Shown: piece by piece, positions 13,276-64,000 of the stretch
Layout of the letters: every line of letters starts with the position of its first letter
Numbering within the stretch: position 1 is the stretch's first letter
Assembly (NCBI GenBank): GCA_000091205.1
Contig: AP006490.2
DNA: 64,000 bases
Direction: 5' to 3' (one strand)
Source: Cyanidioschyzon merolae
Taxonomy: Eukaryota
Position numbers and translations under genes: made by a program
Notes under the pieces: generated by a model
Told to the model about the DNA's origin: nothing
Database searches by the model: none
The model's input: the letters and a program-made list of their open reading frames with translations, nothing else

Positions 13276-13410
<135 letters not shown>

Positions 13411-13655
13411 GGGGTTTTGTCGTGCGCTTCTACTGCTGTAGGAGTCGGAGCGAGTGCTCCGGATACGACGAACCCGCACCCGCTTTTCCGGGCGGTTTCT
13501 CGTTGCGTGTACCTTTGTTGCGCTTCAAAAGCCGTCCTAATGGTGTAGGCACTAGCGTCTCGTGCTGGTGGCTAGTTGAGGTCAATGCAGGCAAGCAGTC
13601 TGCAGGACGGAATCAGGCATAGAGTCCTGAACGATACAGGACTTTACAGTACTGT

Positions 13656-16640: not shown

Positions 16641-18039
16641 AGGTGCGATTTCCCTTCGTTCGACAGAGCGTTGACACTGGATCAGGCCTCTCCGATAGCG
16701 TGCTTGCTATCAGCGATCAAGCGCGAATGGAGCGATGCGCTGCCTGTTCGGGCGCTGACGAGTCATGCGCTTGTCGCGGGCGTCTCCAAGCTTCGTTCAC
16801 GGATCCGTCACAGATGGTGTCTTAGGGCAGCGCGTAGCTGCCTCTAGAACGCTGTCCTCGACGTGTGCACTCCTGGAATGTGCGTATAACCACAACTCGA
16901 GCAGCGCGACGGGCGCATCCTGCTTGGATCTTGTTTAGACCCGCAGGGTCAGGCATCCGCACGGAACGATCGAGCATCCTGCAGATACGTTCCATCGATG
17001 CCATGCGCAGCTGCACACGACTTCTCTTCATTGACAAAACGTTTCCATAGGCCAGCGTTCTCCGATTATGCGCATTTTTCTTTTCTTTCTCTTTTGTTTT
17101 TTTTTTCAGTGCGAGGTGGAGTATCCATCAAACCCCCGATTTCCATGTTACATTACCTATATATCATCTCGGATATTTTGGTCGTTTCGTACGTCCTATG
17201 GTGTGCCGCACCCGCCGAAAGCGACAACAATGGCGCCTATAGCGCCGGTGCGGTCGCCGTATGGAGACAGAACGGCGTTAGCAGCACACGATGCGGGCGT
17301 GCAGGCGATGCGCTCGCGGTGACATGCACGATCATCGGGACGCCTTTACACACCGGTGTGCTTTGATTTGCTCTCCTCCAGTCGTGCACATCTGTGTACA
17401 TAGAGCGGCTGCTGCCTCGGGAAAAACGCCCATATAGGGTCTAACATGAGCGTTTGTGGTGTGGGATGCGAGCGTTCGCTCGGGGAGCGCGTGCGTCGCG
17501 TCACCCGATGTGGTAGATGCATACGCTGCGAGCACGACACCTGAACAACTCTGCCAGCGGTGCGCTTTACGCATCACAAAGTCACTTTAACCATTGCGGT
17601 CTCAGTGAATGGGCCCTAAAAGCATAACAGAGTCTTGGTTGGTGCGTCGGAAGCACGCTTTCCAGGTATTGTCACATGCGTAAAGATCAAAGAATGGGGC
17701 ACTGAACCGCTCACCCTCTTCCTGTCTCTCTCCTTTCTTCGGACTTTTCGTAGATGTACCTACTCGACATGACAAGTGTATCAGCAAGGACTTTTGGATG
17801 CATACGTTCTGTTCCGAGCTTCGGTCGTCGATTTGGATCGTCCGCTGCCACGTACGGCTCCTGGAGTTTGTCACATTATCGGGATCGAGATGATACGCGA
17901 CGCCGTCGTACAACGGTTCGTAAAATAACCGATATCATTACATAATGCAGACGTACAAGGCTTCGTGCTTCTCCTTTCGTTACGTGATGCACGCTCAAAT
18001 CATGTACGCATCAAGCTTTCGATCTTTCTCTTTGAAGGC

Positions 18040-18460
18040 ACGCTGTGGGGACACAACTTCTCGCTGGTGGATTGACGAGTGGAAAGACTCAACGTGTTTC
18101 CGTGGCGACTTGTTCAGAAGCTCGTGCCGCACTTTTACTCGAACTGTCAAGCCAGATCATCGATTCCGTTCGAAAGACGAGTCCTCCACTCTGTGTGGCC
18201 ATCCGCCACACTGGACTCGACACTAGCATCATACCCCCAGGGGAAAGATTCACATATGCCCTCACCTTCTCTTTTTGGATAGAAGACCGTGTTGCGTTCG
18301 AGATTCATTCACCGCAGCGATCGCTTTCATCGGAAAGGTCGTCATCGGTTTGCACGAGTGAAACAGATATACACTGGAATTTCTCGACTTGTTCTGCAGC
18401 GAAGTCCTTGGGCGGAGAAATCTGCATGGTATCCCTGAGCCATGGCACCGCTCACCACCA
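18040..18460 (+). repeat. Diverged dispersed repeat 'R1', copy B
   Basis: See copy A. The blocks gcgacttgttcagaagctcgtgccgcac and cagatcatcgattccgttcgaaagacgagtcc are shared with the reverse complement of 1150-1340. Confidence 0.45.
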
Positions 18461-23458: not shown

Positions 23459-23790
23459 TGTTTGGCAATGCCGAATGACAGAATCTGATTATTGTATACG
23501 AGGTGTGCATGAGCATCGTTTTCATATTTGGCAATGCCGAATGACAGAATCTGATTATTGTTCACGAGGTGTCCATGAGCATCGTTTTCATATTTGGCAA
23601 TGCCGAATGACAGAATCTGATTATTGTTCACCAGGTGTGCATGAGCATCGTTTTCATATTTGGCAATGCCGAATGACAGAATCTGATTATTGTTCACGAG
23701 GTGTGCATGAGCATCGTTTTCATATTTGGCAATGCCGAATGACAGAATCTGATTATTGTTCACCAGTTATCCTTGAGAATCGTTTTCGGT
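23459..23790. repeat. 66-bp minisatellite, about 5 tandem units
   Basis: The unit tttggcaatgccgaatgacagaatctgattattgttcacgaggtgtgcatgagcatcgttttcata repeats with a 66-bp period (unit starts 23461, 23527, 23593, 23659, 23725) and a few point variants. The overlapping ORFs on both strands derive from the repeat. Confidence 0.9.
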
Positions 23791-25772
23791 GCACATAAAC
23801 GGCGCTCCGGCCTTGATGGGATGTTCATTGCACCATACCGATGTCTTGTACCAGGCGGGATTCCAGTGCCATCTGTCCTGGCTGATGCGCTTTGCGCACC
23901 AAAAGTTTTCCGCGTTCCAGCAAAGTGCTCAGACTGAACACGAAACGATTCTTTCGAACTTTCTCTCGACAGAAAGCCGTTGGATACTCAGGAAGCATGA
24001 GAAATTTCCGGATGTTGATCTAAGCGTTCAAGTCTCGGTACAGGATGTTCTTGCACGTTATGTTGCCGGTGGAATCACACCATAGCACGCCCAACGGATT
24101 CGATGGCCTTGCCGTTCGACGTACGAGCATCTTACCGAACGCCTCTGCTTCAGACGCTTCTTCTCGACCTGTTTCAGCGTGCACCCGGGTTCGGGATGCG
24201 CTGATGTCGTTCTCTACGCATCGATAGGAATCGTACAGAATCGATACCTGCACACATTGGACGCTCTCTTCGACGGAGCATGACCTGGGAATTCGCGCAC
24301 TTCAACATGACAAGTGCCACAGGCTGCGAGCTTACCGTGCGACTGATCAGTTATATCCCTGGCCAACCCAATGAGAAGAGGTTTGCGATTCCTTGCTCCT
24401 TTCCTGCGTACAATCGAGTCCTTTTGCGACTCGATCGCGGTCTCATGGATGATTGCCGCGGATCGTCCACAGAGGCCATTTGAACGTTGATGCACGGTAC
24501 GAGCAAGGAGTACAAAATTAAATTCTGCGTGATATGGATCCTGCCAACGCCATTCCATCGGGTCGTATGATCCATTATATCCCTGATGCCGGACGCATGA
24601 TAATGTCGAGACCTGAAAGAATCAGGCTGCAATTCATGAGGTGTTCCTAGCATTAGCACTGGTACAAAGGTATGATCGAATCGCTCGGCTGGAATTGGAC
24701 GCATTGAAGACCTTCCATGGAATCCTCTACGGAAACTTTCGTGAAGAAATGCTTCAAGGCGAGATAAGCTAGGTATTCCATCATGACGTCCAAATTAATA
24801 TTTTGAAAGATTTTCCCCGTTGGTGACTTTTAGAACGGAGGTACCGACAACGGGTCCACACTGATCTTCCTCCTCCGACAGATTTCCATGCTGTTTCTCT
24901 GCGTCCTCTTTCCGGGAGGGTCTTTCACGTTTTTGTCCGTTTTCCCGATTTCTCGTTTACCTCGCTTGGTAGCATAGACGTGGTCGCTGTATCCCATCTC
25001 CGTGCTTTCCATTGAATTCAGACGCACCGGATGGGCGACGGAACTGAAACTTGCCTCTCATGTTCATGTACCTGGTGTTGCTCAGGTGCCTTTTCGTCAC
25101 CCTTACCATGGCGTACACGCGCTTGGACCGAATCGGGCATGGCCTCCCTGTCCCGCATCCGAGCACAGTACCAACAGAGCAGCTCAGTGCTGGTGAAGCT
25201 ACAAAATGGATTGTCGAAGTCTTTTTGGGCCGCGGATGCGAACGACTCGTCCATGCATGCGTGAGCGTGAAAGTTGCGTTTTACGATACAGAAGACGCAT
25301 TCGACGCATTGTGCTGATACCGATGAGCGTTGCCACGAGCGACCGACTCGGCAGCTTGCCGCCGCCCTAGCTCCCAATGTCTCGTTTCCGAGGTACTCTT
25401 TCGAACGCTGACGCGAGCCTACGCCAGCAAGATGCGCACATTTCAGGTCGATCTGGATGGAACCTGGGTTGCCACGCTCGCGCTTCCTCCATCCCGACAT
25501 TCCCCATGTATCAACAAGACAAAAAAGGTTGCGCTGTACACCGCTCATCGATCATGTACTGGACGCCGTCGAGCTGGTGCGCACCAGACTAGCCATCATA
25601 CGCACTACACAGAAACGTCATACGCGTGCACAAGCTTTGAGCATGATCTGCTCCGCTGCTGCCGGGACCTGCCCCGGATCCAGCGCTAGTCTAGTAGCAG
25701 CTGCATTTGCGCCACGCTGTGTGCCAATGATGTGCTAGGTGCACCGCTCGAGATCACGCAAACACTCTAAAA

Positions 25773-38573: not shown

Positions 38574-40599
38574 TCAATGCAAACGACAAGGCCGCGGAAG
38601 GTCCTGGACGACACCTTCCGACTCACCGAGACCGTTCACGTAGCGCACTTACTGATCAGTCTAAAGTTCTTCGTGTCCAGCGATGTTGTCCACGGTGATT
38701 GTCTGCACCGTCCTGCCGGCACGCTACGAGCGCGGTGTTGAACACGAAGTCTACTGTTGAAAAATACCGGTTCGTTAACTGATTGGTTTCCGAGCACATC
38801 GCTTGCGGCGACTAGCCTGGTGCAGCAGAACGATTCGTTTCCAGGATGAATTGGGTCGCATCGGGTTCATGTTACTCGATATTGACTTTTATTACCCGGA
38901 AGCATGGCACTTGGAAGGATTTCTCTCGAGTTCAAGAGCGATCCGGAGTTGCCGTTCGTTTCGGTGACGTTGCCCGCCGGTGACGTTCTTCGCTCGTGCA
39001 AGCCCCCGATTCCGACCTGTACCTTAATCATGGTGCAGTAAGCATGAAAGAGGAGGAGGAAATGATCTAGAATGCTCCTGAGATTTGTTCTCACATAGAA
39101 CAGACGACACATATGTTTCCCATAGCGTTGCCAGTCACGCCTTGTGCTGGTTGTCCTCCTTTTCATCGTCTTTGGCGCTTACGGTTGCAAAGTCCAAGCC
39201 GTCCGCATGACTGCACTGCCATTTTTCGGCAAGTTCTTTTTCAGCAGTGTCCCATATGTGTCTAAGTTTTCGACTAGGCAGCACATTTCTTCCTGCGTTG
39301 CGTCTGAAATAGAGTGACCGATGGTTGCACGGCTGCGTTGTACTGATTTGCCCAGTGGAGACGAGAACCACTCATAGCGTCACGCGGCTGTGGCAACCAT
39401 GTGTTCGACGGATCCAAACCATACGGCGGATGGAATGAGTGATATCGTATCCAGGTTTTGAATGCATAAATGTGCTGATGAGCTCGAGCACGTACGCCGT
39501 GCACGAGAAGCGCTGATGATTTCGGAGACTCACATTCATATCGCCAGAAAGATTTGATGCACGATCACGACCCCCTTGTCGCAGAATCGCAAAGCGTACA
39601 TGACTATGTTGATTGCACCAGCACGTAGTTGGAGAACTGGTGCGACTCACTGGCACCAAAGTAGACGCGAGCGGACCGGCTCTTCGACGTATGCTCTGCT
39701 TGTCATGAAAACCGGGGACGGTCACTGAAAACATCGGAGAGCTTCGTTCGAGATATGTCCTCCGATTCGACGAAAGACTTGGGATCAAAATGGTGCCTAT
39801 TAAAGGTCGCTAAAGAAAGCGAACATGTTTGAAACGAAATCTTCTTCTGCTCAAGTATAGCAGAAAACTGTGCATGCGGAAGAACGCGCAATCGACAAGG
39901 TTGCCCGAACTGAAACGTTTTGAAGTTGCATCCATCCAAGTATAGCATAAAACAGTGAATGCTGGGGAATGCCTGATATGCGGACCTGCTACGGAGCACG
40001 CAAGCTTTCATGGGCATTTGTGAGCGATTCGGGGTTTGAGGTTTGCACCCGCCATAGCTGCCGCTTTGTTGCCCTGAAGTGCTCTGTCGCCTGTCGAGAA
40101 GCACTGCGGTAACATTGCTCAGCGCACCGTCTCATATCCAGTGGGCGCGTTCAGAGGCGCTCGCTGTCGAACGCAGCATCTACACATGTGGATTCTTCAT
40201 TGGAGCACTTAACTGCTGCGAGGCTCCTGCCTTTTCGATTTTGCCGAACTGTTCACCAGATGTTCAGCTTCGGAATTCGATTTACAGTATTAAGCAATAA
40301 AGAATTCAGGGTCAAGTTCAGGAATCTCGGTCGTTTCCACGGGGTTGCCCCTTCGACGCTTTGTTGCCGAAACCCAATCCATCATTGTGAGAAAGATGAT
40401 CCAGGACGCCCTCGGGAATGGATTCGTATAATTAGCGATACCGTTATCGATATCAACCAAGAAGCCACCACGCTCCCTTGCTCCACACCAGCCGCATTTC
40501 AAATTACGTATTCAGTAACTTTTCTATTCCTCTGCTTCAAAGCAACTCTTGGGCACAGCAATCTGCATTGATTGCTTGAGGAGAAGAAACGCGCCCGAC

Positions 40600-41268
40600 G
40601 TCACTGGGTGACGGATAATTCACCAACTCATGCGGAGTGTGTACTGCAGTCGTAAGGCCAAAAATAGATTTGGTTCGAAATAGAAATTATGATCTCTTTC
40701 GTGGAGACCGACGGAACGGAATTCCATAGCTCGCCCTTGCGCTTGCGCTTGTGCGTGCAGGGAGCAACATACTCTTTAAGAAGATCACCGAACGCAAGCC
40801 GATGACCCTACGGTGCGACTTTACTCGTGGAAATGGATGAGGATATCGAGAGACGCACTTGGCGCACGTCGAGAGCACGTACGGCACCATGAAGTCAGCT
40901 CTCACGCGCCCCAGTACAGTGCGTGGAAGCGAAAGTGTGCAGGGCGTACGGAAACACCTCAGCAACGATGACTGGCACCGCTGCGGGGGCCGAGCCTCGA
41001 CTACAAGCAAAGGGGATGAAAATGGCGAGCGAAGCAGAGATTGCAATGATTCCCAGTGCTTGAAATGGAGAGACGAGAGTCCTATGGGCAAATTCTGGAG
41101 TTTTAGACTGACGTGAATAGCCATCGACCGCTGACGACGGAGCTGGAGAGTGTGGAGCGACTGGCTCGTTTGAAGCGCTAGCTAAGCGAGGGTATTTAGA
41201 AGCAGGGACAGTGAAGGCCCGCACGGGCTGGTACTCATGCCAACGAGAGAAGCGATGCAGACCTTTAG
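40600..41268 (+). repeat. 669-bp direct repeat, copy 1 (family unknown; possibly a solo-LTR-like or other dispersed element)
   Basis: About 98% identical to 46645-47313 in the same orientation. The shared block runs from gtcactgggtgacggataattcacc to gcgatgcagacctttag. The first 13 nt form a short palindrome, gtcacTGGgtgac. Confidence 0.9.
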
Positions 41269-41363
41269 TATGTACATATGTATCAGATGTATGGACTAGT
41301 TCCACTGGATGCTCAAATAGGTACACGCTGGCACGTGCATTCTCCACCAAAGAGCGACACCCG

Positions 41364-42395
41364 CTACCACACTACAGGCGCGACTGATCGATAATAATCC
41401 GGTGGTAAATATTCCGGCAGTTCCTCGGCTGTAACCCATGCATAATCTACTGCAGCTGGTGCGCGTACCCCAGTAATACAGCCGCTAATCAACTGTGCAC
41501 GATAAAAAAAGATTTTGATCCCGGAAATGCCCTGAGCCTCTTGGAGCGCTGGCGAATAGATATGCTTCAAATGTGCACATGGAGCATTGCCAATAAAATG
41601 AGCCTCAAAATCGTTTTCGTCATCGCCATCGGTTCCGCCAGTCTCGATGAGACTTTGGAGCGCTTTTTCGGCCTCGCCCCGAAAGAAAAAGGTTTTCGAG
41701 CAGCGCGTCTCAGCGCCGCCACTGGTACCTAGCGCTTCGGCGGATGCAGCGGCTGCGTCTGTACCGGCCCGCAGAGGCATCGGGTCATTACTGGATTGCA
41801 TTAGGCGCTCTTCTTCGATGAATCGCTGAGGGAACTGCCACAGTGAACGGCCTGTCGGACCAAGTTTGCGTTGAACGATAAGGAACAGCCACTGGTCCAG
41901 TTTGCGACGCAGGGAACGCCGATCATTGGTACGGTCGGCCTCTGTTTCGCGAGGCGCCGGCACATATTCACTATCGTCGAGCTCAAAAACTTTCGAGTTT
42001 AGAAAGGGGTGCTTGTCTGGGATCGTGTCACCACTTTCGCCGAAGAGTCGCTGCATGACCTCGGGAGAAAGCTCTCGGGCTTGCGCGTTGGCCATCAACA
42101 GCTGAAACTTGAGGAACGCCCGCTCCTCAGGAGTAGGCTCTGGCATGATGATCGGCGTTCGCTCCAAAATAGTAGCGACCGCATAACGATACGGCAGCCG
42201 CTGAGGCTCAGTACTCGGTTTGCTCGCGCCCGCTTTGGAGGCAGAGCCTCTCCGCGGGAAACCGTTCGGCGGCAGCTGGTAGCGTGCTAGCCGCAAGCAA
42301 CGACGCGACGCTGCCAGTGCCTGATTCAGGCAGCTACTGCATAGGTATCTTTTCCACGTATGCAGCAGCGAAGCGGCCATACGCGTAGCGTACAA
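41364..42395 (-). CDS. MRPL46: Mitochondrial ribosomal protein L46 (NUDIX-like fold)
   Basis: EADRTNDRRSLRRKLDQWLFLIV...FIGNAPCAH...KIFFYRAQLISG aligns with human MRPL46 [22 protein letters not shown]...FLGNAPCGH...KVFFFKALLLTG. The first ATG is at 42378-42380. Confidence 0.8.
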   Translation of the reverse strand: MYATRMAASLLHTWKRYLCSSCLNQALAASRRCLRLARYQLPPNGFPRRGSASKAGASKPSTEPQRLPYRYAVATILERTPIIMPEPTPEERAFLKFQLLMANAQARELSPEVMQRLFGESGDTIPDKHPFLNSKVFELDDSEYVPAPRETEADRTNDRRSLRRKLDQWLFLIVQRKLGPTGRSLWQFPQRFIEEERLMQSSNDPMPLRAGTDAAAASAEALGTSGGAETRCSKTFFFRGEAEKALQSLIETGGTDGDDENDFEAHFIGNAPCAHLKHIYSPALQEAQGISGIKIFFYRAQLISGCITGVRAPAAVDYAWVTAEELPEYLPPDYYRSVAPVVW

Positions 42396-43104
42396 CGACG
42401 CTCGTACTGCGCAGGTACTGAATGAGGCGCCTTGTTACGCGTCGACCAGGATCGTAGATGAACAGTATATTTCATATATGTTTCAGGATATACAGTTATG
42501 TACATATAGATACATTTACGAAAAGGGACCACGTGGGCAATGCACCACAGGCGGCCGACGGGGATCTATCCTCAGCAGCGGCGCCTGTGCGCATGAAGCC
42601 GCTGCGCAGGCCTGTCAGAAAGTGCGTCTCTGGCGCATGAATCATTCAAGCACACAGCCGGCGGCTGCGGATAAGGTTCGCGAGTTTCGCCCTGTGCCTG
42701 ATGGGTCATGTTCGAGTCATGTGTCTGCGGTACCAGGTCTTTGTCCCGTGTCGGAGAAGGAGACCGGGATCGATGTTGAGCGATCCACGCAAGACGCATG
42801 CTGCAGATTCGTTCAGACGCTGTTTCACCATCAGAGATGTGTGGGGCATCTCTCCATGCCAATGCACGAGGTAGCCGCAAAACGCTTTGCAACAACGAGC
42901 CCAAGCACGTCGAACCAAAGACAAGGTGTCTCTTATGGTACCTGACGTACTGGATTCCCCAGAGACCGTGATCGTTGCGATGGTGCTGGACAACGCCGCA
43001 CAGCTACGGCTGCGATGCACGTGCCATGCCTGCTCGTCTCTGCGAGACAAGTGGCTTGCAGAGCGCTCAGCGACTCGGATCGGATGCACGACGTGATGCA
43101 TGCC

Positions 43105-43767
43105 TCATTCCCCAGCATCCTCGTTCAATGCCTGATCTTTCACACCCATCAGGATGCAGATGTTTGTCATGGTGAGCAGCATCTCTGCAGTGCCGTGTAG
43201 GTAGTCTACATTTGCCAGCTTCTCGTGATATACCCGCAAAGCAATCACCCCGGCGACGATTGTGCCCAGAACGAAAACTAGCAGGTACGACAAACCGATC
43301 TTGGTGATCGTCGTGAGCGTTCGTTCTCGCGTCCATAGCACGTACAGAAACCCGGCGTACGGGATGATTGAGACCTGAAACAAGAACGTTACCAACTCGT
43401 CTGCACTCGGGAGCCGATCTAGCGACGGCAGCATCGGTACCAGGGCCAACAACGTACTTGAGTGCCGCACGCGCTGGATTCGACGTCCGAGTGATGCACT
43501 CTGCCGGTTGCGAACGCGCGTAGCGGCACCCGTCCCGTGAAGTCTTCCTGCACGCTGCCCTGCTCGTGCAAGGAAACAAGTCCGCAGAAACCGCGGCCGT
43601 GCGTTCGAGACCTGCGGCGTTAACCCCGCATCCTTCGAGGGTATTGCAACTCCAACGTAAAAGAGTTGGGAAAGAGTCCTCATCGCAACGTGCGCTACGC
43701 AGGATTGCCAGGATCCTTGCCGGCGAGTCGACCAGGGCGCAGCCGCAGCAGCAGCGTACGGAAACAA
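43105..43767 (-). CDS. Hypothetical small membrane protein with an Arg/Ser-rich presequence-like N-terminus and 2-3 predicted transmembrane helices
   Basis: The first ATG, at 43681-43683, gives MRTLSQLFYV. The hydrophobic segments are FLFQVSIIPYAGFLYVLW and IGLSYLLVFVLGTIVAGVIAL. It is paired divergently with TMEM120. Confidence 0.4.
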   Translation of the reverse strand: MFPYAAAAAAPWSTRRQGSWQSCVAHVAMRTLSQLFYVGVAIPSKDAGLTPQVSNARPRFLRTCFLARAGQRAGRLHGTGAATRVRNRQSASLGRRIQRVRHSSTLLALVPMLPSLDRLPSADELVTFLFQVSIIPYAGFLYVLWTRERTLTTITKIGLSYLLVFVLGTIVAGVIALRVYHEKLANVDYLHGTAEMLLTMTNICILMGVKDQALNEDAGE

Positions 43768-43956
43768 ACGACTACTTCCGGCCGCGGCAGCAGCAGCAGC
43801 AGCAGCAGCACCAAAGGCAGTAGATCCTTCAGTACACGGGTTCTTTTGCTAGCGCACTGGTTTGCGTCTCTGGTGAGGTGTACCCGTCCGACAAAGTTTT
43901 CCCTCCTGTAACCGTTGGTGAATATTTGTTTTTTGTTGTATAGTGCGCTCGTGTCC
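43684..43956. promoter_or_regulatory. Compact bidirectional promoter region containing a (CAG)8-9 tract
   Basis: About 270 bp separate the head-to-head ATGs at 43683 (-) and 43957 (+). The tract gcagcagcagcagcagcagcagcacc lies at about 43787-43812. Confidence 0.35.
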
Positions 43957-45141
43957 ATGGTTGTAGAGGTTGGTGCTGCTGGAGAGGCATCGCTCGGCAG
44001 GCGACAAGCGCAGGTGCAACAAGACACCAGAGGTGCAAACTCGGAACCAGCGCACGTCGTCTCGGGGGGACGTGCTCAAGACTCGACAGCATCCGTAGCG
44101 CAAGCTTCGGTCCAGGAGGAGAGGACGTCGCCACTGGGCGCAGAATTGAACGAGCTGGAGCGAGCAAACGGTGAACTCGAAAAGACTGTGAACGAATATG
44201 GCTCTTTAATAGAGCGTTACACGAAACTTCAGCAGCAGCTATGCCAGCTGGCAGCAAAGCAACAGAAGCGACTTGTACACTTAGAACGGACCCTTGCCAA
44301 CCAGCGGGAGACGATGCGGCCTCGGAACAACTCGCCGGACTTGCGGCAAGAGACACGCGCTGTGCTCGAACGCTCCCGGAAACTATTACGGGAGCGGGTC
44401 GAGCCGCTTCTCCCCTCTGACGGTGGCTGGTTTGTGCGTCTCTTTCTGGGCACTATCAACGTGCGCTTTATGGATAAGCGAACACGACTCTCATTCAAGC
44501 GCGAGTACGAGCAGTTCAAGCAGCAAACGGCCCCGGCGCTGGTCATTGCTTCTGTGGTCTGTCTGCTGTGGACGTCGTCACGGTGGCCAAGCCTGCTTCT
44601 CCAAATGTTCATCGCCTATTATTACAGCGCTCTAGCTCTGAGAGAAAGTGTTCTAGTCGCGAACGGCTCAAATATTCGACGCTGGTGGCGTCTACATCAT
44701 TACCTGAGTCTGGTACTTGCCGTTGTCGTGCTCACCTGGCCGGATGGGGAAGCGTATGCAGAATTCCGAGGCGAAATCCATTTTCTTGGACTCTACCTGT
44801 CGCTGCTACAGATTTTGCAAGCTCGTTATCAGATGTCGCGATTATATACGCTGCGCTCGCTTGGCAAGGCAGGTGAACTGGACGTGGCAAACACCGACTC
44901 GCCAGCGCAGTTACACTGGGGCGCAAATATGTCGCTATTGCTACCAGCTATTCTGGTAGCGCACGCGCTGCAAGCGTGGACTGCTGTCCGGGCGTTTCAG
45001 GTGTATTTCAAATACCCGCGTGTTGCGCAAGCGCTTCTTGGTGGCACAATCACCCTCATTACGTGTATTGGAAACGTGGTGACGACTTTCCGCACGCTGA
45101 GAGAGAAAGCCGTCTTGTCTGGTCAGCACGCTTCGAGCTAA
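43915..45141 (+). CDS. TMEM120: TMEM120/TMPIT-family membrane protein
   Basis: AYYYSALALRESVLVANGSNIRRWWRLHHYLSLVLAVVVLTWPDG aligns with human TMEM120A [44 protein letters not shown]. An N-terminal coiled coil precedes the transmembrane domain. The first ATG is at about 43957. Confidence 0.85.
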   Translation: MVNICFLLYSALVSMVVEVGAAGEASLGRRQAQVQQDTRGANSEPAHVVSGGRAQDSTASVAQASVQEERTSPLGAELNELERANGELEKTVNEYGSLIERYTKLQQQLCQLAAKQQKRLVHLERTLANQRETMRPRNNSPDLRQETRAVLERSRKLLRERVEPLLPSDGGWFVRLFLGTINVRFMDKRTRLSFKREYEQFKQQTAPALVIASVVCLLWTSSRWPSLLLQMFIAYYYSALALRESVLVANGSNIRRWWRLHHYLSLVLAVVVLTWPDGEAYAEFRGEIHFLGLYLSLLQILQARYQMSRLYTLRSLGKAGELDVANTDSPAQLHWGANMSLLLPAILVAHALQAWTAVRAFQVYFKYPRVAQALLGGTITLITCIGNVVTTFRTLREKAVLSGQHASS

Positions 45142-46644
45142 CGAAGTAGATTGGGGTCTCGCGTACATACTGGGGATTTATTTACGACCTGATGGATGAT
45201 TGAAACCGAAAACAAAACCGGGCACTTTTCGTTGCCAGTGCGTCGCGATCGGCTTGGCGAATGATCTGCCGGGGCGGACGCTTTGCGTCTGCATACGCAT
45301 GTCTTTTATACCATACAGTCTGCGGTTTATGTTTGTGGCGCAGGGAATTGGTCTGCTTGGTATGAAGCATTGGTGAGTTGCGGCTTTCCATGCTTGCAGT
45401 TGTGGAACCCGGTCCTGGATAGGTCCCCAGGCAAGATGATGTCGGTACCAGCGGCGTTCCATCTTCGTCATAGCCTTGCAAAACATCGGAATGAGTATGA
45501 TCGGGTCCTGCGTCTCTGGAGGTACTCTATACTGCATTTAAATTCCACTGTGCATCTCTCGTCGAAGAGCAGCATACACTGGAGGCATTTCGAATGGAGT
45601 TACCGGTGAGCACCGCCATTCCTGGGTATGGCGTATCCTGTTGGCCAGCAACACCGCCCGTGAATGCGAGCAAGCTTATCGGTACAGTCCGTAATGTTTA
45701 GAGTCGATGCTGCCGCTAGATCTTCCTTAGCCTCCACGCATTTCATGGAGATTGGAAAAGCTGATCTCGACATGCAATGTGACGCCTAGGTGCGCACCGC
45801 TGACCGCCATGTGAATACTAGCAGCGCGTAGGTTTCCATCGGAGGTGTCGTTATTCAGTGAGTGTGGTTTCGTAGGTGACCCGCGTCATCCTATGTCAGA
45901 GCGTTGTGATAGAACACGAATCTCTCCCAGTACGGATGGATTCGAGGTATAAGATGGATGCATTTTCAAAGCGGCAACGCTATCGGCTTCTCACTCATTC
46001 GAGTCATTCCTCACTGCCGCGCGATAGAATGCGTATCCAAACGACCGCCGCAGCGACATCGAAATTCTTTACTGTCTCCGGATGACTCCGGCTCTAAGCT
46101 CAAAGCGCAGGAGAGCGATAGGATTCTCGGGCCTTTGTCTCGTAGGATCTTATGGTGCCGTAGCTCGTGGATACCGCACATAACTGACTAGGCGCAGAGG
46201 TAACGAGCCAGCCACTGGTAGCGTATGCGCTTCATGTGGCGTCTTGGCGGATGCTTTGAATGTTCAAATGGGACACTGAACTGCCCAGTCCGTTCTCGCG
46301 TGTTTAAATTTATTCCGAACCTTGCATCAGATCCTCAGCCGTGGGACTCGGAGTGCGGCAAAAAGCAATTGCGTATTCATGAAAAGTCTCTGGATCCGCA
46401 TTCGGAATTTCCATGGGGCAGCTTTGTAGCCTTGTCGCTAGAATTCAGTTCGCCAACGCGAGAACGTTGCATCGTGAACTCTCGAAATGGATTCCAAAAA
46501 TGACAGGCATCACTGTCGAGTTCAAAAATGAGAGACTCAGAGATTTCCAAATAATGCCTTCTGAAGTCGTCAGATGCTTCCATTTCAAGGCAGCACGACA
46601 GCGAAAAATTTACGCCTCTCGATCGACGGGGAATCGTCTACGAG

Positions 46645-47313
46645 GTCACTGGGTGACGGATAATTCACCAACTCATGCGGAGTGTGTACTGCAATCGTAA
46701 GGCCAAAAATAGATTTGGTTCGAAATAGAAATTATGATCTCTCTCGTGGAGATCGACGGAACGGAATTCCATAGCTCGCCCTTGCGCTTGCGCTTGTGCG
46801 TGCAGGGAGCAACATACTCGTTAAGAAGATCACCGAACGCAAGCCGATGACCCTACGGTGCGACTTTACTCGTGGAAACGGATGAGGATATCGAGAGACG
46901 CACTTGGCGCACGTCGAGAGCACGTACGGCACCATGAAGTCAGCTCTCACGCGCCCCAGTACAGTGCGTGGAAGCGAAAGTGTGCAGGGCGTACGGAAAC
47001 ACCTCAGCAACGATGACTGGCACCGCTGCGGGGGCCGAGCCTAGACTACAAGCAAAGATGATGAAAATGGCGAGCGAAGCAGAGATTGCAATGATTCCCA
47101 GTGCTTGAAATGGAGAGACGAGAGTCCTATGGGCAAATTCTGGAGTTTTAGACTGACGTGAATAGCCATCGACCGCTGACGACGGAGCTGGAGAGTGTGG
47201 AGCGACTGGCTCGTTTGAAGCGCTAGCTAAGCGAGGTTAATTAGAAGCAGGGACAGTGAAGGCCCGCACGGGCTGGTACTCATGACAACGAGAGAAGCGA
47301 TGCAGACCTTTAG
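46645..47313 (+). repeat. 669-bp direct repeat, copy 2
   Basis: See copy 1. The two copies differ by a few substitutions and two 1-2 bp indels. Confidence 0.9.
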
Positions 47314-50300
47314 CAAATATTTGCGATTTACAGAACACGTCACATTTTCAACTTACATGGGTGTAATAAGACGGATTAATCTCTCATCATGAAAAAGAAA
47401 TGCATCATCTCCCGAATTATGTTATTCTTTACATTCTATATACTACATGACTATCTGAATTTCTCTGTGGCCCTCCTCGGCTCATCTCAAACGAGCCCTC
47501 CAGCGAGACGCTTACGTTCTCACACCAGTGCTCGTTTGCTGCTTACGAAGGTTTAGTAATATCGAAAAATGGAAACCAAGAGGACTTGCTTCATCCTGCT
47601 AGAGAAAATCGTCCGGATGCATGGATATCGTGCTCCGGCTGTGCAATTTATTGAACGTTCCGTTAAAGTGGCACGCTCTAGGTGGGAATCCAGTAACCGC
47701 TCCCCTGGCCACTGATGTGTCTCATAGGATTTCAGCAGTTATTCAGCACAAAGTAGAGCGCGAATACGTGACAACTACCCCAAAACTTTCCTCAAAACAG
47801 AGCCGATGTACCCGCTTGATGCACGATGAATTTCCGAACAATCATCGAGGCGAACAATTCTCAGTATAGAGATGGCTCGAGCGCATTGAGGTTTGTCGAA
47901 TATCGCAAAAGTCAGTTTTTCGCATTCGATTACATCGCCATGTGATGTGCAGTCGACTCATTGAATACCATCTCGTGAACCTGGGTCAGGTACTCTCTCT
48001 TCTTCCGTACTTGTTTCTGCGTGCAGCCATGCTCATGATGCGTTTATATCCTGATGAACGCACCAATGAGAGTCCCGCAGAATCGAATCCTGTGCTCGTT
48101 TCATGCCCTCGTTGAAGGAGCAGTAATGCAGCCTTTACGCGCTACAGAAAGTCCAGCGACCTTAGCCGTTAAAGTGGGACACGAATTATATGTCAATGCC
48201 TGTTCCAACACCTTGACCATTTTTGGTGAATGCACACTACCTGCATCAGTGCGATTGGACCCGTTCGTGGCCATGGTGAATTCTCGTTTACTCCTGCCAA
48301 GGATCGTCCATATGAGAGAGTTGGACGCTAATGTACGCTGCGAATGCTGCGTGCAGAGATGCCCTTCAGCTCGATCCGGTGCTCAGGGCGACAAGTTGCA
48401 TATACTGCCGCCCCATTCGATTTTTCTCTGTTCCTCTCGGTATCCAGTATTTCCGACTGGCGATGATGTCGAGGCATGGTAAAACTGAGCAGCTACAACT
48501 GCTTTCTGTTCATGTCTTTGGCCCCGTTTTGGATTTATCGGAACCGAGACGGACACGATGCTATTGAACCGCGGATGCACGCCCTTCACGATGGCATTCC
48601 CTTCATAGAATTCGAAGCGTTCGACATGCGACCCGTTGCGTGATCCATTCCTAGGCATCACGAAGTGTTTGAAGACAGGCATTTCTTCGGTCTCCATATG
48701 CCTGTGAACTTGATCCAACTTCCTACCTGAATCGAGAGCTCTTCCACGTCCGCCCGAGCGCTTAACAAAATAGACCGAATAGATCATTCATGCTCGCAGA
48801 GACGATCCGTAGCGTACTGAGAAGGCCACAATTTACGATACGGAAATATCGGGGTTAGTATAAAGCAACGTAATGTGACAAACGGGCACCACATTTCTGA
48901 AACCAAAAGGAGTCTGGGGCTCGCAACTTTGATGGTCGGGGCTGCTCAGCTCTGAAGGGCCCTGCTCAGGAAGAACTCGCAGCGCGATGAGCATCCGAGG
49001 CACCCTCAGGTTCCAGATATCAACTCGTTCTGACACCCGTTGATCCGAACTTGATGGAACAAATACCGACTTTGGACGATCTCAAGCTATTCTCGCTCCG
49101 ATTGCGACATATTTTCCGATCTCGGTACCACCTCGATCTCTTCCGCTCCAGTTTAAAAATCACCCGCTTCGATATCCCCAAGAGTCCTTTTAACCAGTAC
49201 CCTCGGTTTCTGAGTCGCTACCGTGTCGCTCTAGAGAACGCAAGGTGCGGTTTGTGAAGCGCCGAAGCTTGAACGGTACACAATTTTTCCGCTTCTGAGA
49301 TTGGCTCGATGCTTTTCGTTGCCATTGGCACTTTCGGTGATCTGATTACCGAGATGGCACGCCCGCACTTCAATGCATTCTAAGCAATGGTTTGACGAAT
49401 CTCTGATATTTTAAACAGATTCTTCGCCTCCTCTGTGCCGAGTATCAGTTGTACTGGTGCGAGAAAGTATGATCCGAAAAATTCGGCGAAATGCCAACCG
49501 CTGATAGCCCTGCGTCTTTAGTTCCTCCCATTCGTTGCATGGCGAGATGCACCAAGACGAGGGAAACTGTGCGAATAGTCCCCGAGTGAGGAGCTGCGCG
49601 CTTCCCAACGGCTTGCTGCATCTCAAGTTTTGGGCCAATTTCCCCAATGATGTGATATAGTATGGAGGAATTGTTTGCTGTTTTTACTGATCTTTTAAAA
49701 CAGACTTTTCTCCTTTCTGTGGCTCCTAGTCCTCCGCGAAAATTGATCATTTACTTCTTTTTCCGGTAGTGTTGCCCTATCCTTTGTTGGGCAGGGAGAC
49801 CTGAATATGGCCGGTAAAAGCGAAACCAGTTTTTTGGCCCTTGGAATTTTGACGCACTTGGTCGACTCCGAGGCTCTAACTTGCTCTTTTTTTCGTCTGC
49901 ATCTCATACTGCCCGAATACGTGTACACCACCTTCCTGGTCGCGAGCACGCCCACAGACTGGACTGCACTTCTTCTGCCCCCTCCGACGCAAAGACGGAG
50001 CAGCGATAGTGCAGTTCATAGCTGTGACTGTAAAAATCAACTTGTCTATGGACAATGGGAAGAAGATCTATATTGCCGCGGATACCAGTGTCGCGTCTCT
50101 TGATTTGGGAACGTGAAAAAATGCATTTGACCAAGAAGAGGAAGCCTTCGTCCTAACTGTCTCGTAAAGAAAGGGCCTCAGCGAAGGGCAGCTCAACGCA
50201 GATCGCAGCGGCGGACAAGTTGACTGCTCCTGAGTCATGGAATGCGACGATTTCCAAGAGATAGACAGAATACTGTAGGATGGAGGAGCCGTAAAGCCCT

Positions 50301-51460
50301 CTAACGACAGATTTGCTGAGGAAAGCGTCCTGTCCGTTTTACAATTTCCAGGCAAACACAAGACTGAATCACGACTTGGCGCGATATCGGAATGCTCACA
50401 GGTCTCTTCGTTACGACCAGATACTAAGCGCTCTTTCAGCAACCATTTGCAGTCCTCTCTCTCCTAGCGAATGAAAACTCATCGAATGAGGCGAGCAGCC
50501 GGCCATCCAGTGGGAAACCTTTGAGTTTCAATATATATTTGGTATATTGTCGTTCGACGCGAGACGCTCCGGAGTAGTGGCGCTCGTTTTTTCGCTTCGA
50601 ATGGTGTCAGTTCATTTCCGATCCAATCAAAAGTACAGAAACTTCGCACCTTGCGGCTTCTCTTGAATTCGTGCTAGGTCAATGCATGGAGTGGCATGGA
50701 GTTTGAAGCACACATTTATGAAGACAGAGTGTCATATGTTCTATTTTGGGTGCGCCACGTTCACGATACTATTTACAAGACCGGATAAAATACACCCATA
50801 TTTTTTACTGTAGAATGGTTGGCTTACAGAGATGAGGCCGTTACTTACCGGACACCAGTGACCGCCTTGAGTCAGTTCACGACCTTTTACCAATCTACAA
50901 AATGCATCACTTTTGCTGAATATGCGGAAGAAGAGAAAACAAAAATTAAAAAGCGAGGAAGCTCAGGAATTCCACAATTGAATGTTCAGCGTATAACGCC
51001 GCTTTAGAACGGCGCTCGTAAGGTAACCCTCGATGAGACGCAATTCGCGAAAGTTCCCTCGACGTGGAAAGCCAGTACATTTGGAGAATGCAATCTTTAA
51101 AGCCACCAAAACAGAAGCAGATCCGCAGATAGTGAGTCACACCCCAACAATGCGACCTACGCCATAGGCTCTTGAACACCTTCGGTTCCGAGTCCGAACA
51201 TGTGGGTGCGTTGCTCCTGCATACAGTGGCAACTTTAGAACCCGAGCCAGCCAGAAAGACGATCCTTTCCGGACAACGAAGCACGATAGGAAGCTACAGA
51301 ATCCAGAAGTTTCACGACCAGCGGCTTGCTTGTCCGTCGCTGACGGCGGCGCGAACTGTCAATACAGGTACGATTCCTGATTCGTAGACTTTGCAACCGT
51401 CAATCGCCTCACTCAAATACTGGTTTGAGGCTATTCGATTGTAGCCGCAAAGGAGACTTC

Positions 51461-54700: not shown

Positions 54701-54884
54701 CGAAAGCTGCTAACGGTACCAAAGTTCGTTGCAGGTCCGTACCGATCCAAAGCGTAGCCACGCTGTAAAGCGCCGTTCTCAAGTGGAACGTCGCCGGTCG
54801 TGTACAGTAGTGACGAGGCACCCGCCCTAAACATAGAGTACCAAGCGACGTGCAGACGCCTCGTAGTTTTGGACCCGCCACGTT

Positions 54885-57513: not shown

Positions 57514-58540
57514 TGCAGTACCGCCCTGACATACATGGAGATGCAGCGGCCTGGTACGATACCCGTCGACGCTTCTATCAAACGCGTATCTTTCTCTGCG
57601 GCTTACGCGTGTGCGGATGAGGTATGCATCACTCTACTCAATAGAAATTTCGTTAATTTTATTGATCGTATATAAACAAGACACGGAATGATTCCTGACC
57701 AAGGATATTCGTTTAATCAATATGCTTGTTATGCATGCCGCACCGACGCTGGAATAAGGACCTGACCTGAATTTCGCTACTATCCTGTGCCATGGGCTGG
57801 AGCTGATGCCTGTTCAAGTCATTGCCATGCTGCCGTGGTTGTCCAAGTTATGGTGCCTGCTTCGTCCTCAGGATCCGGCGATCTTGGCGGAGGCAGAGCA
57901 CACAGGTAGCGTCCATGTCTGCCACGAGGTTTGAGCCTTCCATCTCGCCTGGCACGATCGTGGCACTTGACAAAAGCGCATACTGTATTCTGGTCTACTC
58001 TATCAGATTATTTTCAAAAGCCTAACCCGTACATCGAGCCCGAACGAGGCACCCCTGAAAACAAACGCCTTTCGAAAGTCGAACGGCGCCAGCGGTGCAC
58101 AGTAGTGGCGAGTGGCCCGCCCTAGAAATGACATCTCCAACTGACGTGCAGACGCATCCAAAATAAGATACCACCTTTGAAAATTTCCTTATGCCTCCTC
58201 TACGGTACTCGTCGGCGAGCTACGTGGAAGTTCGTCTACGATTGTTGTGATCTCTGAGCGCAGCACTGCGGAACCCTTGGCACCAATTACTGATGAGGTT
58301 GTTGATGGGAAGCATAGGAGATACGTCTAGTTTCTGAAAAAGACACTGAGCGCTTGTGCTAGATGTGCTCAACGCTAGACATTCTACGGGAGATTTAGGT
58401 CGGACTCTGGACAATGGATGGGTGATCACTCGTGCAGCTACGCAAAAGAGGTTTTTGACTGGATACGCACACCTACGCGAGCGATTCTAGCCGGTGACGT
58501 GATCGGCAGCTTTGCACCGGAGAAAATCTAATCCAAGAAA

Positions 58541-62208: not shown

Positions 62209-64000
62209 ATGCGAAGAAGATATTTTTCTATATTGAGACTCCTGGTGGTAGTATTGGTTGTGTCGGGCACACACACAGTTCGTGGAGTTTTGTCCTCCGA
62301 AGATACTTTTTTATGGACCTGGATCGGTGGTAGTAACTCTACCAGCAGTTCAGGTAGCTACGGTGTTCAGGGTGTGCCAAACACCAGCAACGTGCCTCCG
62401 GCGCGGTACGGTGCGGCCTTCTGGACCGGCGCTGACGGGGTGCTCTGGTTGTTTGGTGGTGGCAGCGACTTGAGAGACGTCTTCGGTGATCTCTGGAACT
62501 ACAATCTAAGCACGTTCTCTTGGACCTGGGTTGGAGGCTCTGCATCCCTCAACTCTGGAGGGGTATACGGCTCCCGCGGAGTTCCCAACAAGAGCAACTA
62601 TCCGCCTTCGAGGACGGAATCCGCTGCTTGGAGTGACAGCAACGGAAACCTTTGGTTATATGGAGGCCATAATTTGAACTCGGGCTATAGTGATATGTGG
62701 ATGTATAATGTATCGTCGGGCGAGTGGACATGGGAGCAGGGATCCAACAAGACCAATGTTCCCCCGACATATGGTACTCTTGGGAACTCGTCTTCAAGCA
62801 ACACGCCTGGCGCTCGTTTCCAACCCGCGACCTGGGTTGGCCTAGATGGCCAGTTTTATCTCTTTGCCGGATCTAGTCCTAATGGTACGTATTACGGTGA
62901 CTTGTGGCAGTACAACACAGTGACCAACGAATGGAGCTGGATAGGTGGCACTCAACAGCAGATTCCCTCTGGAAGCTATGGTGCGTTTCGCCAGGCATCG
63001 CCGAGCAATTATCCCGCTGGACGTCTCGGAGCCACATCGTGGCGAGACCTTGATGGGAACTTTTGGCTCTTTAGCGGTTACGGACAGATTGACGGAAATG
63101 GCGGCTCTCTGAATGATTTATGGCTGTACAATGTCAGCTCCAAAGAATGGACTTGGATGTCTGGAAATGACAGTGTTGGTTCGGATGGGGCAGTATACGG
63201 CGAGAAAGGAGTGCCGTCATCGAGCAACACTCCGGGGTACAGGTCCTCTTCCTCTGGATTTGTAGACTCGTCAAACACTCTGTATCTCTTCGGTGGTTAT
63301 TCACCCGGTTTCTGCAACGACCTGTGGACGTTCAATACTACGAGTCTTGAATGGACTTGGGTAGACGGTGACAATACAACGGATGGAGCCTATAGCTACG
63401 GCGAGCTTAACAAGACAAGCAATACAACGCTTCCACCTCCGCGAGCTTATGCAGTTCTTTGGAATACCGATCAAAACGACCCGGTCCTGTTCGGAGGCGT
63501 AGGCAACTCAGGTTCCCTTAACGACCTCTTCACATTATACATCGCAACACCGACGCCTACACCGACACCAACACCGACACCAACACCGACACCAACACCA
63601 ACACCAACACCGACGGCATCACCGACGCCCTCCGTTACTGCACCCCCGTCGGCAACGACAAATGTGACGCAGACCGCTGTAGGCGAAGGCTCTGCGGTCT
63701 GCTTCCCCGCGGATGCCCCGGTGCTGATCGATGGTCTGGGCAACCATCTGCAGATAAGCGAGCTTCGATCAGGTATGGCCGTAATGGGCGTCAATGGGCG
63801 CGGGCAACTGGTCGAAGATAGTGTACTAGGATGGTTGCATAACGAGGCCGGCGCTACTGCGGAGATTCTGGCGATCAAGACGCTTTCCGGAAAGCAGCTG
63901 CGTCTGACGAGACAGCATCTGGTATATCGAATGATCGAACACTCTAGAGACTTTTACGGTATGACGACCGCTTTCTCGTGTATTTCACAGAAGCAGCAGC
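62209..64000 (+). CDS. Secreted Kelch-repeat beta-propeller, (Thr-Pro)n linker and Hedgehog/intein-type Hint domain protein (Hog-like autoprocessing architecture); the 3' end lies beyond the window
   Basis: The frame opens after a TGA at about 62098-62100, and the first ATG gives the signal-peptide-like MRRRYFSILRLLVVVLVVSGTHTVRG. At least six Kelch-like repeats follow, of the form W[TS]W[IVM]GG...G.YG..G.P....P.R....W.D..G..WLFGG. A TPTPTPTPTPTPTPTPTPTPTASPTP linker comes next. The Hint module CFPADAPVLIDGLGNHLQISELRSGMAVMGVNGRGQLVEDSVLGWLHNEAGATAEILAIKTLSGKQLRLTRQHLVY aligns with Hedgehog [48 protein letters not shown]...LLLTAAHLLF. The ORF has no stop before nt 64000. Confidence 0.75.
   Translation, partial: MRRRYFSILRLLVVVLVVSGTHTVRGVLSSEDTFLWTWIGGSNSTSSSGSYGVQGVPNTSNVPPARYGAAFWTGADGVLWLFGGGSDLRDVFGDLWNYNLSTFSWTWVGGSASLNSGGVYGSRGVPNKSNYPPSRTESAAWSDSNGNLWLYGGHNLNSGYSDMWMYNVSSGEWTWEQGSNKTNVPPTYGTLGNSSSSNTPGARFQPATWVGLDGQFYLFAGSSPNGTYYGDLWQYNTVTNEWSWIGGTQQQIPSGSYGAFRQASPSNYPAGRLGATSWRDLDGNFWLFSGYGQIDGNGGSLNDLWLYNVSSKEWTWMSGNDSVGSDGAVYGEKGVPSSSNTPGYRSSSSGFVDSSNTLYLFGGYSPGFCNDLWTFNTTSLEWTWVDGDNTTDGAYSYGELNKTSNTTLPPPRAYAVLWNTDQNDPVLFGGVGNSGSLNDLFTLYIATPTPTPTPTPTPTPTPTPTPTPTASPTPSVTAPPSATTNVTQTAVGEGSAVCFPADAPVLIDGLGNHLQISELRSGMAVMGVNGRGQLVEDSVLGWLHNEAGATAEILAIKTLSGKQLRLTRQHLVYRMIEHSRDFYGMTTAFSCISQKQQ
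63547..63625 (+). repeat. (ACACCG/ACACCA)n hexanucleotide repeat encoding the (TP)n linker
   Basis: The sequence reads acaccgacaccaacaccgacaccaacaccgacaccaacaccaacaccaacaccgacg. Confidence 0.85.

Follow-up and report, generated by a model that had tools for sequence, protein, structure and literature searches.

Interlocus gene conversion and the concerted evolution of dispersed repeats are known from human LTRs and Alu elements (PMC4921805, PMC8230782). In the red alga Cyanidioschyzon merolae, intergenic repeats have expanded to 25.9% of the genome, versus 3.2% in Cyanidiococcus (Cho 2023, PMC9812998), and RepeatModeler-based work has recovered thousands of repeat fragments. One of the described families is a novel interspersed repetitive element of 3.2 kb, present in 253 copies and carrying a truncated ORF weakly similar to WSSV WSV486 (Nozaki 2007, PMC1955436). 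Transforming DNA is integrated by homologous recombination in this species (PMC3764038).

Here we analysed a 64,000-nucleotide stretch of C. merolae 10D chromosome 8 (the window), in which two near-identical direct repeats bracket three host genes. The pair resembles the human cases in that the two copies in one lineage are closer to each other than either is to its orthologue in another lineage, both loci have polymorphisms in common, the partners are close together on one chromosome, and the tracts have sharp limits given by the extent of homology. It differs from them in that the partners are otherwise only ~54% identical, so that the homogenised island sits in two very old copies; moreover, the species, a red alga, is haploid and its genome tiny, and conversion is here deduced from sequence comparison. 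We conclude that the two 669-bp blocks (cores A and B) are probably one block of two ancient, decayed copies of a repeat family, kept near-identical by interlocus gene conversion. The features on which this reading draws are listed below; L002 is a Cyanidiococcus locus, L003/L004 belong to a JGI relative and L008 is a wild contig.

40600 to 41268, plus strand: core A, near-identical 669-bp block forming the right-hand part of family unit A (self-BLAST, repeat search)
46645 to 47313, plus strand: core B, the partner block forming the right-hand part of family unit B (self-BLAST, repeat search)
40151 to 40599, plus strand: left half of unit A, old and diverged, ~54% identical to the left half of unit B and as distant from copies D and E (nhmmer)
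46257 to 46644, plus strand: left half of unit B, old and diverged (nhmmer, local alignment)
10323 to 11792, plus strand: family copy C, diverged, with an extra internal segment of ~330 bp (nhmmer, alignment)
375 to 1758, minus strand: family copy D, diverged (nhmmer)
17653 to 18402, plus strand: family copy E, diverged, truncated on its right side (nhmmer)
47551 to 50155, plus strand: module 2, another degenerate repeat, unrelated to the first family and lying 225 bp right of unit B, homologous to 23724-25308 (nhmmer)
41364 to 42395, minus strand: MRPL46-like host gene (Pfam PF11788, MRP-L46; same position in L002, L003 and L008)
43105 to 43767, minus strand: DUF3593 membrane-protein host gene (Pfam PF12159, E = 1.1e-26; syntenic in L003/L004)
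43957 to 45141, plus strand: TMEM120 (TMEM120A/B) host gene (Pfam PF07851, E = 1.4e-78; 100% identical to the C. merolae 10D protein)

A preliminary description had noted a pair of 669-bp direct repeats in the same orientation, and both self-BLAST of the window and a second repeat search recovered it. Self-BLAST returned a single long dispersed pair, the cores themselves, as 40596-41268 versus 46641-47313 (673 bp, 12 mismatches, 0 gap openings, 98.2%). The 669-bp limits are equally valid because one mismatch sits in the first 4 bases (cgaC/cgaG); within them there are 11 mismatches and no indels (98.4%), so that of the "substitutions and indels" first attributed to the pair, the substitutions stand and the indels do not, at least between the copies in the 10D genome. 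The cores lie on the same strand; their starts are 6045 bp apart and 5376 bp separate the two. Core A lies directly beside the MRPL46 3' end, the right end of the core falling 96 bp past the stop codon. Both cores start with GTCAC and finish with TTTAG; the ends are thus GT...AG and, as described earlier, not TG...CA. The flanks (outer, ...gcccgac / caaatat...; inner, tatgtac / ctacgag) have no short repeat in common, in keeping with the earlier view that no target-site duplication is evident. The palindrome said to open each repeat, GTCACTGGGTGAC, does begin both cores; perfect 5-3-5 palindromes are common in the window, however (88 observed versus 62 expected by chance), and the homologous position is imperfect in other family members.

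The similarity between the two loci does not end at the left border. Weak homology (~54-60% identity) continues for ~400 bp further left (40189-40595 versus 46257-46640), with a local alignment score of 39 versus 11.1 +/- 1.3 for shuffles, and local alignment found no homology between the loci rightward of the cores. Each 669-bp repeat makes up the right-hand portion of one ~1.1-kb unit. These units belong to a degenerate, non-coding dispersed family (unit length ~1.1-1.5 kb) with five copies in the 64-kb window. By nhmmer and alignment all pairs of copies are 45-57% identical, cores A and B excepted. The three further copies (C, D and E) were recovered by nhmmer with E-values of 1e-7 to 1e-51, are collinear with one another and occupy unrelated loci; all three carry the ~330-bp segment that is missing from both A and B. 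Core A is homologous to copies C and D at 40728-41251 and core B to copy C at 46772-47296, while homology to D and E spans the left border at 40600 (40159-40692 and 40196-40729, nhmmer). The left half of unit A scores 51 bits against the left half of unit B, with 50 for E and 46 for D. The left edge of the 669-bp block is therefore, as the alignments place it, internal to the family unit and not an element terminus. The earlier proposal of two copies of a dispersed element holds insofar as both repeats belong to a dispersed family, and fails insofar as the 669-bp block makes up no more than a part of each unit. GC content is 53-54% in the cores and 47% in the left halves; because copy C has the same left/right difference, this contrast is uninformative on biased conversion.

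In several respects the family looks like the lineage-specific repeats of C. merolae: it is degenerate, intergenic and numerous (five copies plus two of the other family in 64 kb), and it is missing from the syntenic Cyanidiococcus spacers. Whether or not it is the 3.2-kb element of Nozaki 2007, with its WSV486-like ORF, the family has no ORF conserved among copies: no reading frame is preferentially conserved among the family members, and the longest ORF of all, 291 aa in copy C (11084-11959), matches orthologues only (98%). Terminal inverted repeats in units A-D show no excess over shuffles. Module 2 likewise shows no frame-specific conservation, nor a Pfam domain in any of its six frames. 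The minus-strand ORFs noted earlier in the repeats, 145 aa at 40687-41124 in core A and 92 aa at 46732-47010 in core B, are indeed present and, as had been said, of no recognisable family: neither has a Pfam match. The 145-aa ORF has zero homologues among 5.8 billion proteins, protein searches with it and with the 291-aa ORF of copy C found no paralogues, and in a wild relative the ORF is shortened to 42 aa in both copies. Together the missing Pfam match, the missing homologue and the shortened frame mark these as chance ORFs, as judged from sequence.

What lies between the repeats is host DNA. The earlier assignment of MRPL46, a small membrane protein and TMEM120 as conserved host genes is confirmed by Pfam and by synteny. 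The order NPL4-photolyase-MRPL46-DUF3593-TMEM120-NAT10-TBCC is conserved in Cyanidiococcus (L002) and in the JGI relative (L003/L004), and on this synteny the MRPL46-DUF3593-TMEM120 order is ancestral. The spacers that hold units A and B are longer in the window than in these relatives: 2.8 kb versus 1.4-1.6 kb between photolyase and MRPL46, and 6.3 kb versus 1.2-2.0 kb between TMEM120 and NAT10. Searches of the relatives' syntenic loci with the family HMM and with both spacers gave no match.

What keeps the two cores alike? The preliminary description had left "recent origin or ongoing homogenisation" as alternatives, and the population data favour the second. Four wild contigs (L005, L008, L009 and L010; 99% identical to the window, short-read consensus) retain both copies, with identical borders, in the linear reference arrangement. 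Several features of the cores emerged from these strains: (i) the paralogues of one lineage differ less than orthologues from different lineages do, with 11 (10D), 5, 3 and 0 differences between A and B within strains (range 0-11), and with A differing by 18-21 and B by 9-12 when 10D is compared with the wild strains (9-21), a pattern of concerted evolution; (ii) at nine core sites A equals B within every strain and yet differs between strains, although six of the nine lie inside 30 bp (40801-40830) and may represent one mutational event; (iii) fixed differences between the two loci are found at zero sites inside the core; and (iv) at sites 40649, 40698, 41160 and 41257 the same two alleles are present at both loci. 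The last four sites lie 11-108 bp from a border and are therefore phased by single reads, and the unique flanks that adjoin the borders are specific to their locus throughout. Assembly could have merged the paralogues of the wild contigs across the central ~560 bp of the core and so made them look identical; the argument for conversion therefore leans chiefly on the finished 10D sequence and on the sites near the borders, and the zero differences between A and B in L009 may be such an assembly artefact. Divergence between 10D and the wild strains is 2.7-3.1% in the A core and 1.35-1.8% in the B core, versus 0.9-1.45% in unique intergenic DNA, 0-1.1% in the left half of unit A and 0.58% in the unconverted copy C. 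A metagenome pattern scan returned two contigs only and is no guide to copy number, because dozens of samples demonstrably carry the locus.

We propose that the repeat family expanded in the C. merolae lineage and that units A and B (~1.1 kb each) would have inserted independently into the two intergenic spacers flanking the MRPL46-DUF3593-TMEM120 cluster. Both units would then have decayed to ~50% identity like other members, one block excepted, where non-allelic (interlocus) gene conversion between the close direct copies would maintain near-identity. Homologous-recombination repair, with one core copied from the other, is the probable mechanism. Conversion tracts would stop at the block edges because homology ends there, and, being confined to the block, would leave sharp borders that are the same in different strains. 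To our knowledge, canonical homologous recombination cannot initiate between ~50%-identical sequences, and for this reason the first origin of the identical block is something we only infer. The block may be the last surviving island of a homogenisation begun when the copies were young; alternatively, a single older copying event may have created it, with maintenance since. Elsewhere in the 10D genome there may be a third near-identical copy from which both cores are converted, or a young core subfamily.

Could the cores also recombine reciprocally? As a substrate for deletion or circularisation of the intervening genes, the pair is mechanistically possible. Crossing-over between the cores would excise or amplify a 6.05-kb unit (core, MRPL46, DUF3593, TMEM120 and the left half of B) in wild populations, as an extrachromosomal circle or tandem duplication. 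Contigs L006 and L011-L017 carry the junction predicted for either product exactly, that is, the left half of B, a core and the right flank of A. Six different samples each yielded one contig that closes on itself, 6043-6049 bp long and with ends that overlap exactly by 123 nt, and in L006 the core changes from B-type to A-type alleles within the block. Yet 123 nt is the largest k in the JGI metatranscriptome MEGAHIT k-list (PMC9302102), and a direct repeat yields exactly such a de Bruijn cycle when few reads cover the outer flanks, as is to be expected of RNA. Every cycle comes from one accession series (Ga05065xx-66xx). Other series contributed four long contigs (L005, L008, L009 and L010), each of them linear. 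Moreover, one contig of the cycle series, L011, is clearly a chimera of different organisms, with a tail of 38% GC that contains a WD40 gene and its unspliced intron. The junction occurs with at least four different core haplotypes, so real circles would need a recurrent origin in every strain, and no deletion junction was seen among the contigs examined. The ~6.05-kb circular contigs are best explained as de Bruijn graph cycles in metatranscriptome assemblies. The locus shares with direct-repeat excision (eccDNA) or tandem duplication the two direct repeats around genes and the existence of predicted-junction contigs, and differs in that these contigs are probably graph cycles and that DNA-type contigs show only the reference arrangement. 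We consider excision or amplification unlikely at this locus, and rate a shade lower still the chance that the cores recombine reciprocally in nature and that the closed contigs, found in at least six samples, are a real gene-bearing extrachromosomal circle or tandem amplification in wild Cyanidioschyzon. If they were, the conversion-maintained repeat pair would drive natural copy-number variation of MRPL46-DUF3593-TMEM120. A circle or amplification would be compatible with gene conversion and not an alternative to it.

The similarity of the blocks might instead reflect youth, the 669-bp block being a mobile or duplicated element (a 5'-truncated retro-copy or a short non-autonomous element) that landed twice in recent time. 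The block does finish near the right-hand end of the family unit, like a 5'-truncated copy; its copy number was counted within the 64-kb window, and the RepeatModeler fragments of the genome number in the thousands. However, an old left half of the same family adjoins each block in register, and the homology to D and E continues past the left border, so two independent in-register insertions are not credible. There are no target-site duplications, and youth alone cannot explain the joint lineage changes in both copies or the shared segregating alleles. Two recent landings therefore seem improbable.

We regard it as very unlikely that purifying selection preserves the block as a non-coding RNA, a terminator/3'UTR module or a regulatory element. 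Such a role would fit the position of core A next to the MRPL46 3' end; the cores are transcribed if the cycle contigs are RNA-derived, and transcription of C. merolae repeats has been reported (Nozaki 2007, PMC1955436). Against it, the cores diverge faster between strains than the adjacent intergenic DNA, not slower, and the same segment is ~50% diverged in other family copies. RNA folding of the cores is not above shuffles (z = +0.57 and -1.67), Rfam and tRNA scans of the whole window gave no match, and the ORF is disrupted in the wild copies. The block shows no sign of a selected function, and we rejected this reading on the faster divergence, the lack of RNA structure and Rfam match, and the broken ORF.

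Two direct repeats, 98% identical and 5.4 kb apart, also suggest an LTR retrotransposon or its pair of solo LTRs; repeats of several hundred bp, ~98% alike and a few kb apart are the geometry that LTR-finding programs seek, and one RepeatModeler survey classes 12.7% of the genome as "LTR elements". The ends are nonetheless GT...AG with no target-site duplication, and the interior is an ancestral cluster of three host genes, syntenic in relatives that lack the repeats. Six-frame Pfam searches of 45142-51460 were empty at E <= 1, with no gag, RT or integrase, and a longer homologous unit extends beyond the left edge of the block. Consistent with this, no LTR retrotransposon was reported in C. 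merolae (Nozaki 2007, PMC1955436) and no intact one is recorded in PlantLTRdb. An LTR retrotransposon is thus effectively refuted for the pair, and the initial judgement that this is no ordinary LTR element and that its internal genes belong to the host proved sound. A recent segmental duplication, also raised at first, was rejected: the adjoining left halves of units A and B are only ~54% identical, like any two family members, and the gene order is ancestral.

The repeat pair is real but ordinary, a new instance of a known mechanism and not a mobile element carrying genes. Conversion between two remnants of one old repeat accounts for the LTR-like geometry, which removes a false lead, that of an element capturing host genes. 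Near-identical 669-bp tracts 6 kb apart flank an essential mitoribosomal gene and are a hazard when this locus is targeted by homologous recombination; such tracts also give rise to false "circular" contigs in metagenome and metatranscriptome assemblies. For the biology of C. merolae, the locus offers a small, clean case of repeats evolving in concert in an alga that is haploid and has a genome of 16.5 Mb, and indicates that ectopic recombination acts on the lineage-specific repeats of this species.

Comparing the window with itself returned a single long dispersed pair, two copies in the same orientation and 6045 bp apart (40596–41268 versus 46641–47313; 673 bp, 12 mismatches, no gaps). Limits of 40600–41268 and 46645–47313 (669 bp; cores A and B) are equally valid, the four additional left bases being cgaC/cgaG. 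The preliminary description had given these limits and this orientation, and its sole observational error was to claim indels between the copies. The genes that it had placed between them are indeed there:

41364–42395, minus strand, MRP-L46 gene
43105–43767, minus strand, DUF3593 membrane-protein gene
43957–45141, plus strand, TMEM120 gene

The TMEM120 product matches the C. merolae 10D protein at 100% identity. Two 3-bp (GCA) indel polymorphisms separate the reference strain 10D from the wild contig L005, one at the N-terminal end of the DUF3593 ORF (43745–43747) and the other a short way upstream of that ORF (43786). Both Cyanidiococcus yangmingshanensis (L002) and a relative from a JGI metagenome (L003/L004) share the order NPL4-photolyase-MRPL46-DUF3593-TMEM120-NAT10-TBCC. 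Thus, the three bracketed genes are ancestral residents. The photolyase/MRPL46 spacer measures 2.8 kb in the window versus 1.4–1.6 kb in these relatives and the TMEM120/NAT10 spacer 6.3 kb versus 1.2–2.0 kb; searching the relatives with both spacers and with the family profile described below gave no match. Both observations agree with the published repeat expansion, in which repeats make up 25.9% of the C. merolae genome versus 3.2% in Cyanidiococcus, with intergenic expansion (Cho 2023, PMC9812998).

The repeats carry minus-strand ORFs of 145 and 92 aa, which, as previously described, belong to no recognisable family and for which we found no homologue; in a wild relative, the repeat ORF is shortened to 42 aa in both copies. 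The palindrome reported to open each repeat is genuine but unremarkable, as perfect 5-3-5 palindromes number 88 in the window, where 62 would be expected by chance.

The near-identical block sits within much older repeats. Weak but significant homology between the two copies extends ~400 bp to its left (local alignment score 39 versus 11.1 ± 1.3 for shuffles), and local alignment found none to its right. The proposed membership of a dispersed family holds, since an nhmmer search of the window found three more copies of a ~1.1–1.5-kb unit:

10323–11792, plus strand, family copy C
375–1758, minus strand, family copy D
17653–18402, plus strand, family copy E

All pairs of copies in the window are 45–57% identical, including the left parts of units A and B (A-left, 40151–40599; B-left, 46257–46644; 54%), and the A/B core, at 98%, alone departs from this range. 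A-left matches B-left (51 bits) no better than it matches E (50) or D (46). Because matches of unit A to D and E cross position 40600, the left boundary of the block falls inside the unit rather than at an element terminus. A ~330-bp segment of C, D, and E is missing from both A and B. Neither coding capacity nor a known structure is evident in the family: no reading frame was preferred in translated comparisons, no terminal inverted repeats were found, and neither six-frame Pfam searches over 45142–51460 nor Rfam and tRNA scans gave a match. Copy C contains a 291-aa ORF (11084–11959, minus strand), intact and 98% identical in 27 metagenome sequences, with no paralogue or domain found; it is probably conserved merely through the closeness of the strains. 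We do not equate this family with the 253-copy C. merolae element carrying a WSV486-like ORF (Nozaki 2007, PMC1955436).

Other repeats are present. The TMEM120/NAT10 spacer is composed largely of repeat relics, and a second repeat, non-coding by tblastx, follows unit B at a distance of 225 bp on its right:

47551–50155, module 2, degenerate dispersed repeat homologous to 23724–25308 (nhmmer, E 1e-19 to 1e-43)

A 66-bp unit repeated five times in tandem (23461–23787, 95% matching) directly abuts and overlaps the start of the module-2 copy at 23724–25308. A perfect (TCTG)34 microsatellite (13276–13411) lies between a cyclophilin gene (12238–12984) and an MCM gene (13656–16640). Two weak pairs (nhmmer, E about 1e-9) were also detected, 54743–54863 with 58035–58159, and 62592–62994 with 63003–63414, the latter being adjacent tandem copies of ~400 bp.

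How is the block maintained? Scanning metagenomes with a left-border 24-mer yielded two contigs that match the window at ~99% identity, and ten further contigs were reached via cluster members of the TMEM120 protein. Four contigs from wild relatives (L005, L008, L009, and L010) are linear and collinear with the window, with unchanged block borders. When all cores were aligned, A and B differed within a strain at 11 (10D), 5 (L005), 3 (L008), and 0 (L009) sites, and 10D differed from its wild orthologues at 18–21 sites in A and 9–12 in B. At nine sites A equals B inside every strain but differs among strains; no site in the core showed a fixed A-versus-B difference across the aligned strains, and the unique sequence immediately flanking the block is strictly locus-specific. 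At each of sites 40649, 40698, 41160, and 41257, the same two alleles occur in A and in B; these sites lie 11–108 bp from a border, so that one read or k-mer suffices to phase them. Since the wild contigs are short-read consensus, in which identity over the central ~560 bp could partly be assembler collapse of paralogues, we place weight mainly on these four sites near the borders and on 10D, whose sequence is finished. Such an allele pattern marks interlocus gene conversion that postdates the lineage split. Thus, with alleles common to both loci and no fixed locus differences, the suggested ongoing homogenisation is borne out. In L005, a single B-to-A conversion spanning the entire block would be the simplest history, and would remove the ten alleles private to the 10D A copy. 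Separately, six changes and a 1-bp insertion within 30 bp (40801–40830 and 46846–46875) set both 10D cores apart from both cores of all wild contigs; this cluster looks like one complex mutation or short templated patch, later spread to the partner copy.

Between strains, core A diverges by 2.7–3.1% and core B by 1.35–1.8%, compared with 0.9–1.45% for unique intergenic DNA, 0–1.1% for A-left, and 0.58% for the unconverted copy C. Thus, the block is not under purifying selection. RNA folding of the core was unremarkable.

A genuine circle or tandem duplication predicts exactly a B-left/core/A-right junction, and this junction is present in L006 and L011–L017. L012–L017, from six different JGI samples (3300050363–3300050390), are contigs of 6166–6172 bp whose ends overlap exactly over 123 nt and which close into cycles of 6043–6049 bp, all rotations of core, MRPL46, DUF3593, TMEM120, and B-left. 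We nevertheless consider a real circle or tandem duplication quite improbable. The overlap equals the largest k in the MEGAHIT k-list of the JGI metatranscriptome workflow (PMC9302102), and, according to the literature, a C. merolae 10D-like alga dominates Lemonade Creek, Yellowstone, where sampling has comprised 12 metagenomes along with many metatranscriptomes, both poly-A and RiboMinus. Moreover, the cycles are confined to one accession series, long contigs of other series being all linear; L011, of the cycle series, is fused to a 38%-GC WD40 gene from another organism; and at least four different core haplotypes are represented among the junction contigs. On these grounds, the closed contigs, although episome-like in look, are most likely assembly-graph cycles from the direct repeat, which poorly covered outer flanks, as in RNA data, would yield. 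No deletion junction was seen among the contigs. In the chimeric L011 (5980–7659), the C. merolae-like part breaks off within the 5′ end of MRPL46 (window position 42370), where it is joined to a WD40 gene that retains a 76-nt GTGAGT...AG intron and, judged by GC content, is probably from the co-occurring Galdieria.

A segmental duplication, also proposed, is not upheld, as the left halves are 54% identical and the bracketed gene order is ancestral. An LTR retrotransposon fails on every count tested: the termini are GT...AG and, as already noted, not TG...CA, the flanks of both copies share no short target-site duplication, the internal genes are not those of an element, and the block edge is not a true element end, in agreement with surveys lacking intact LTR elements in C. 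merolae (Nozaki 2007, PMC1955436; PlantLTRdb).

Conversion, then, maintains the block; for the first event that made it, we infer either of two histories. Homogenisation of A and B may have gone on from the family's early days, with their left halves escaping early and then diverging past the reach of recombination. Alternatively, before 10D and the wild lineages separated, a single older copying event, possibly microhomology-mediated, may have made the block. Either history fits the data, core identity to C and D (48–53%) resembling that of C to D (54%). The mechanism is interlocus gene conversion, or concerted evolution of dispersed repeats, and the pair is a new instance of this known process; in contrast to textbook cases, the converted block is here an island in two almost unrecognisably diverged copies. 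The closed contigs are a caution for circular-contig screens and, if RNA-derived, would imply transcription of the cores and of B-left.
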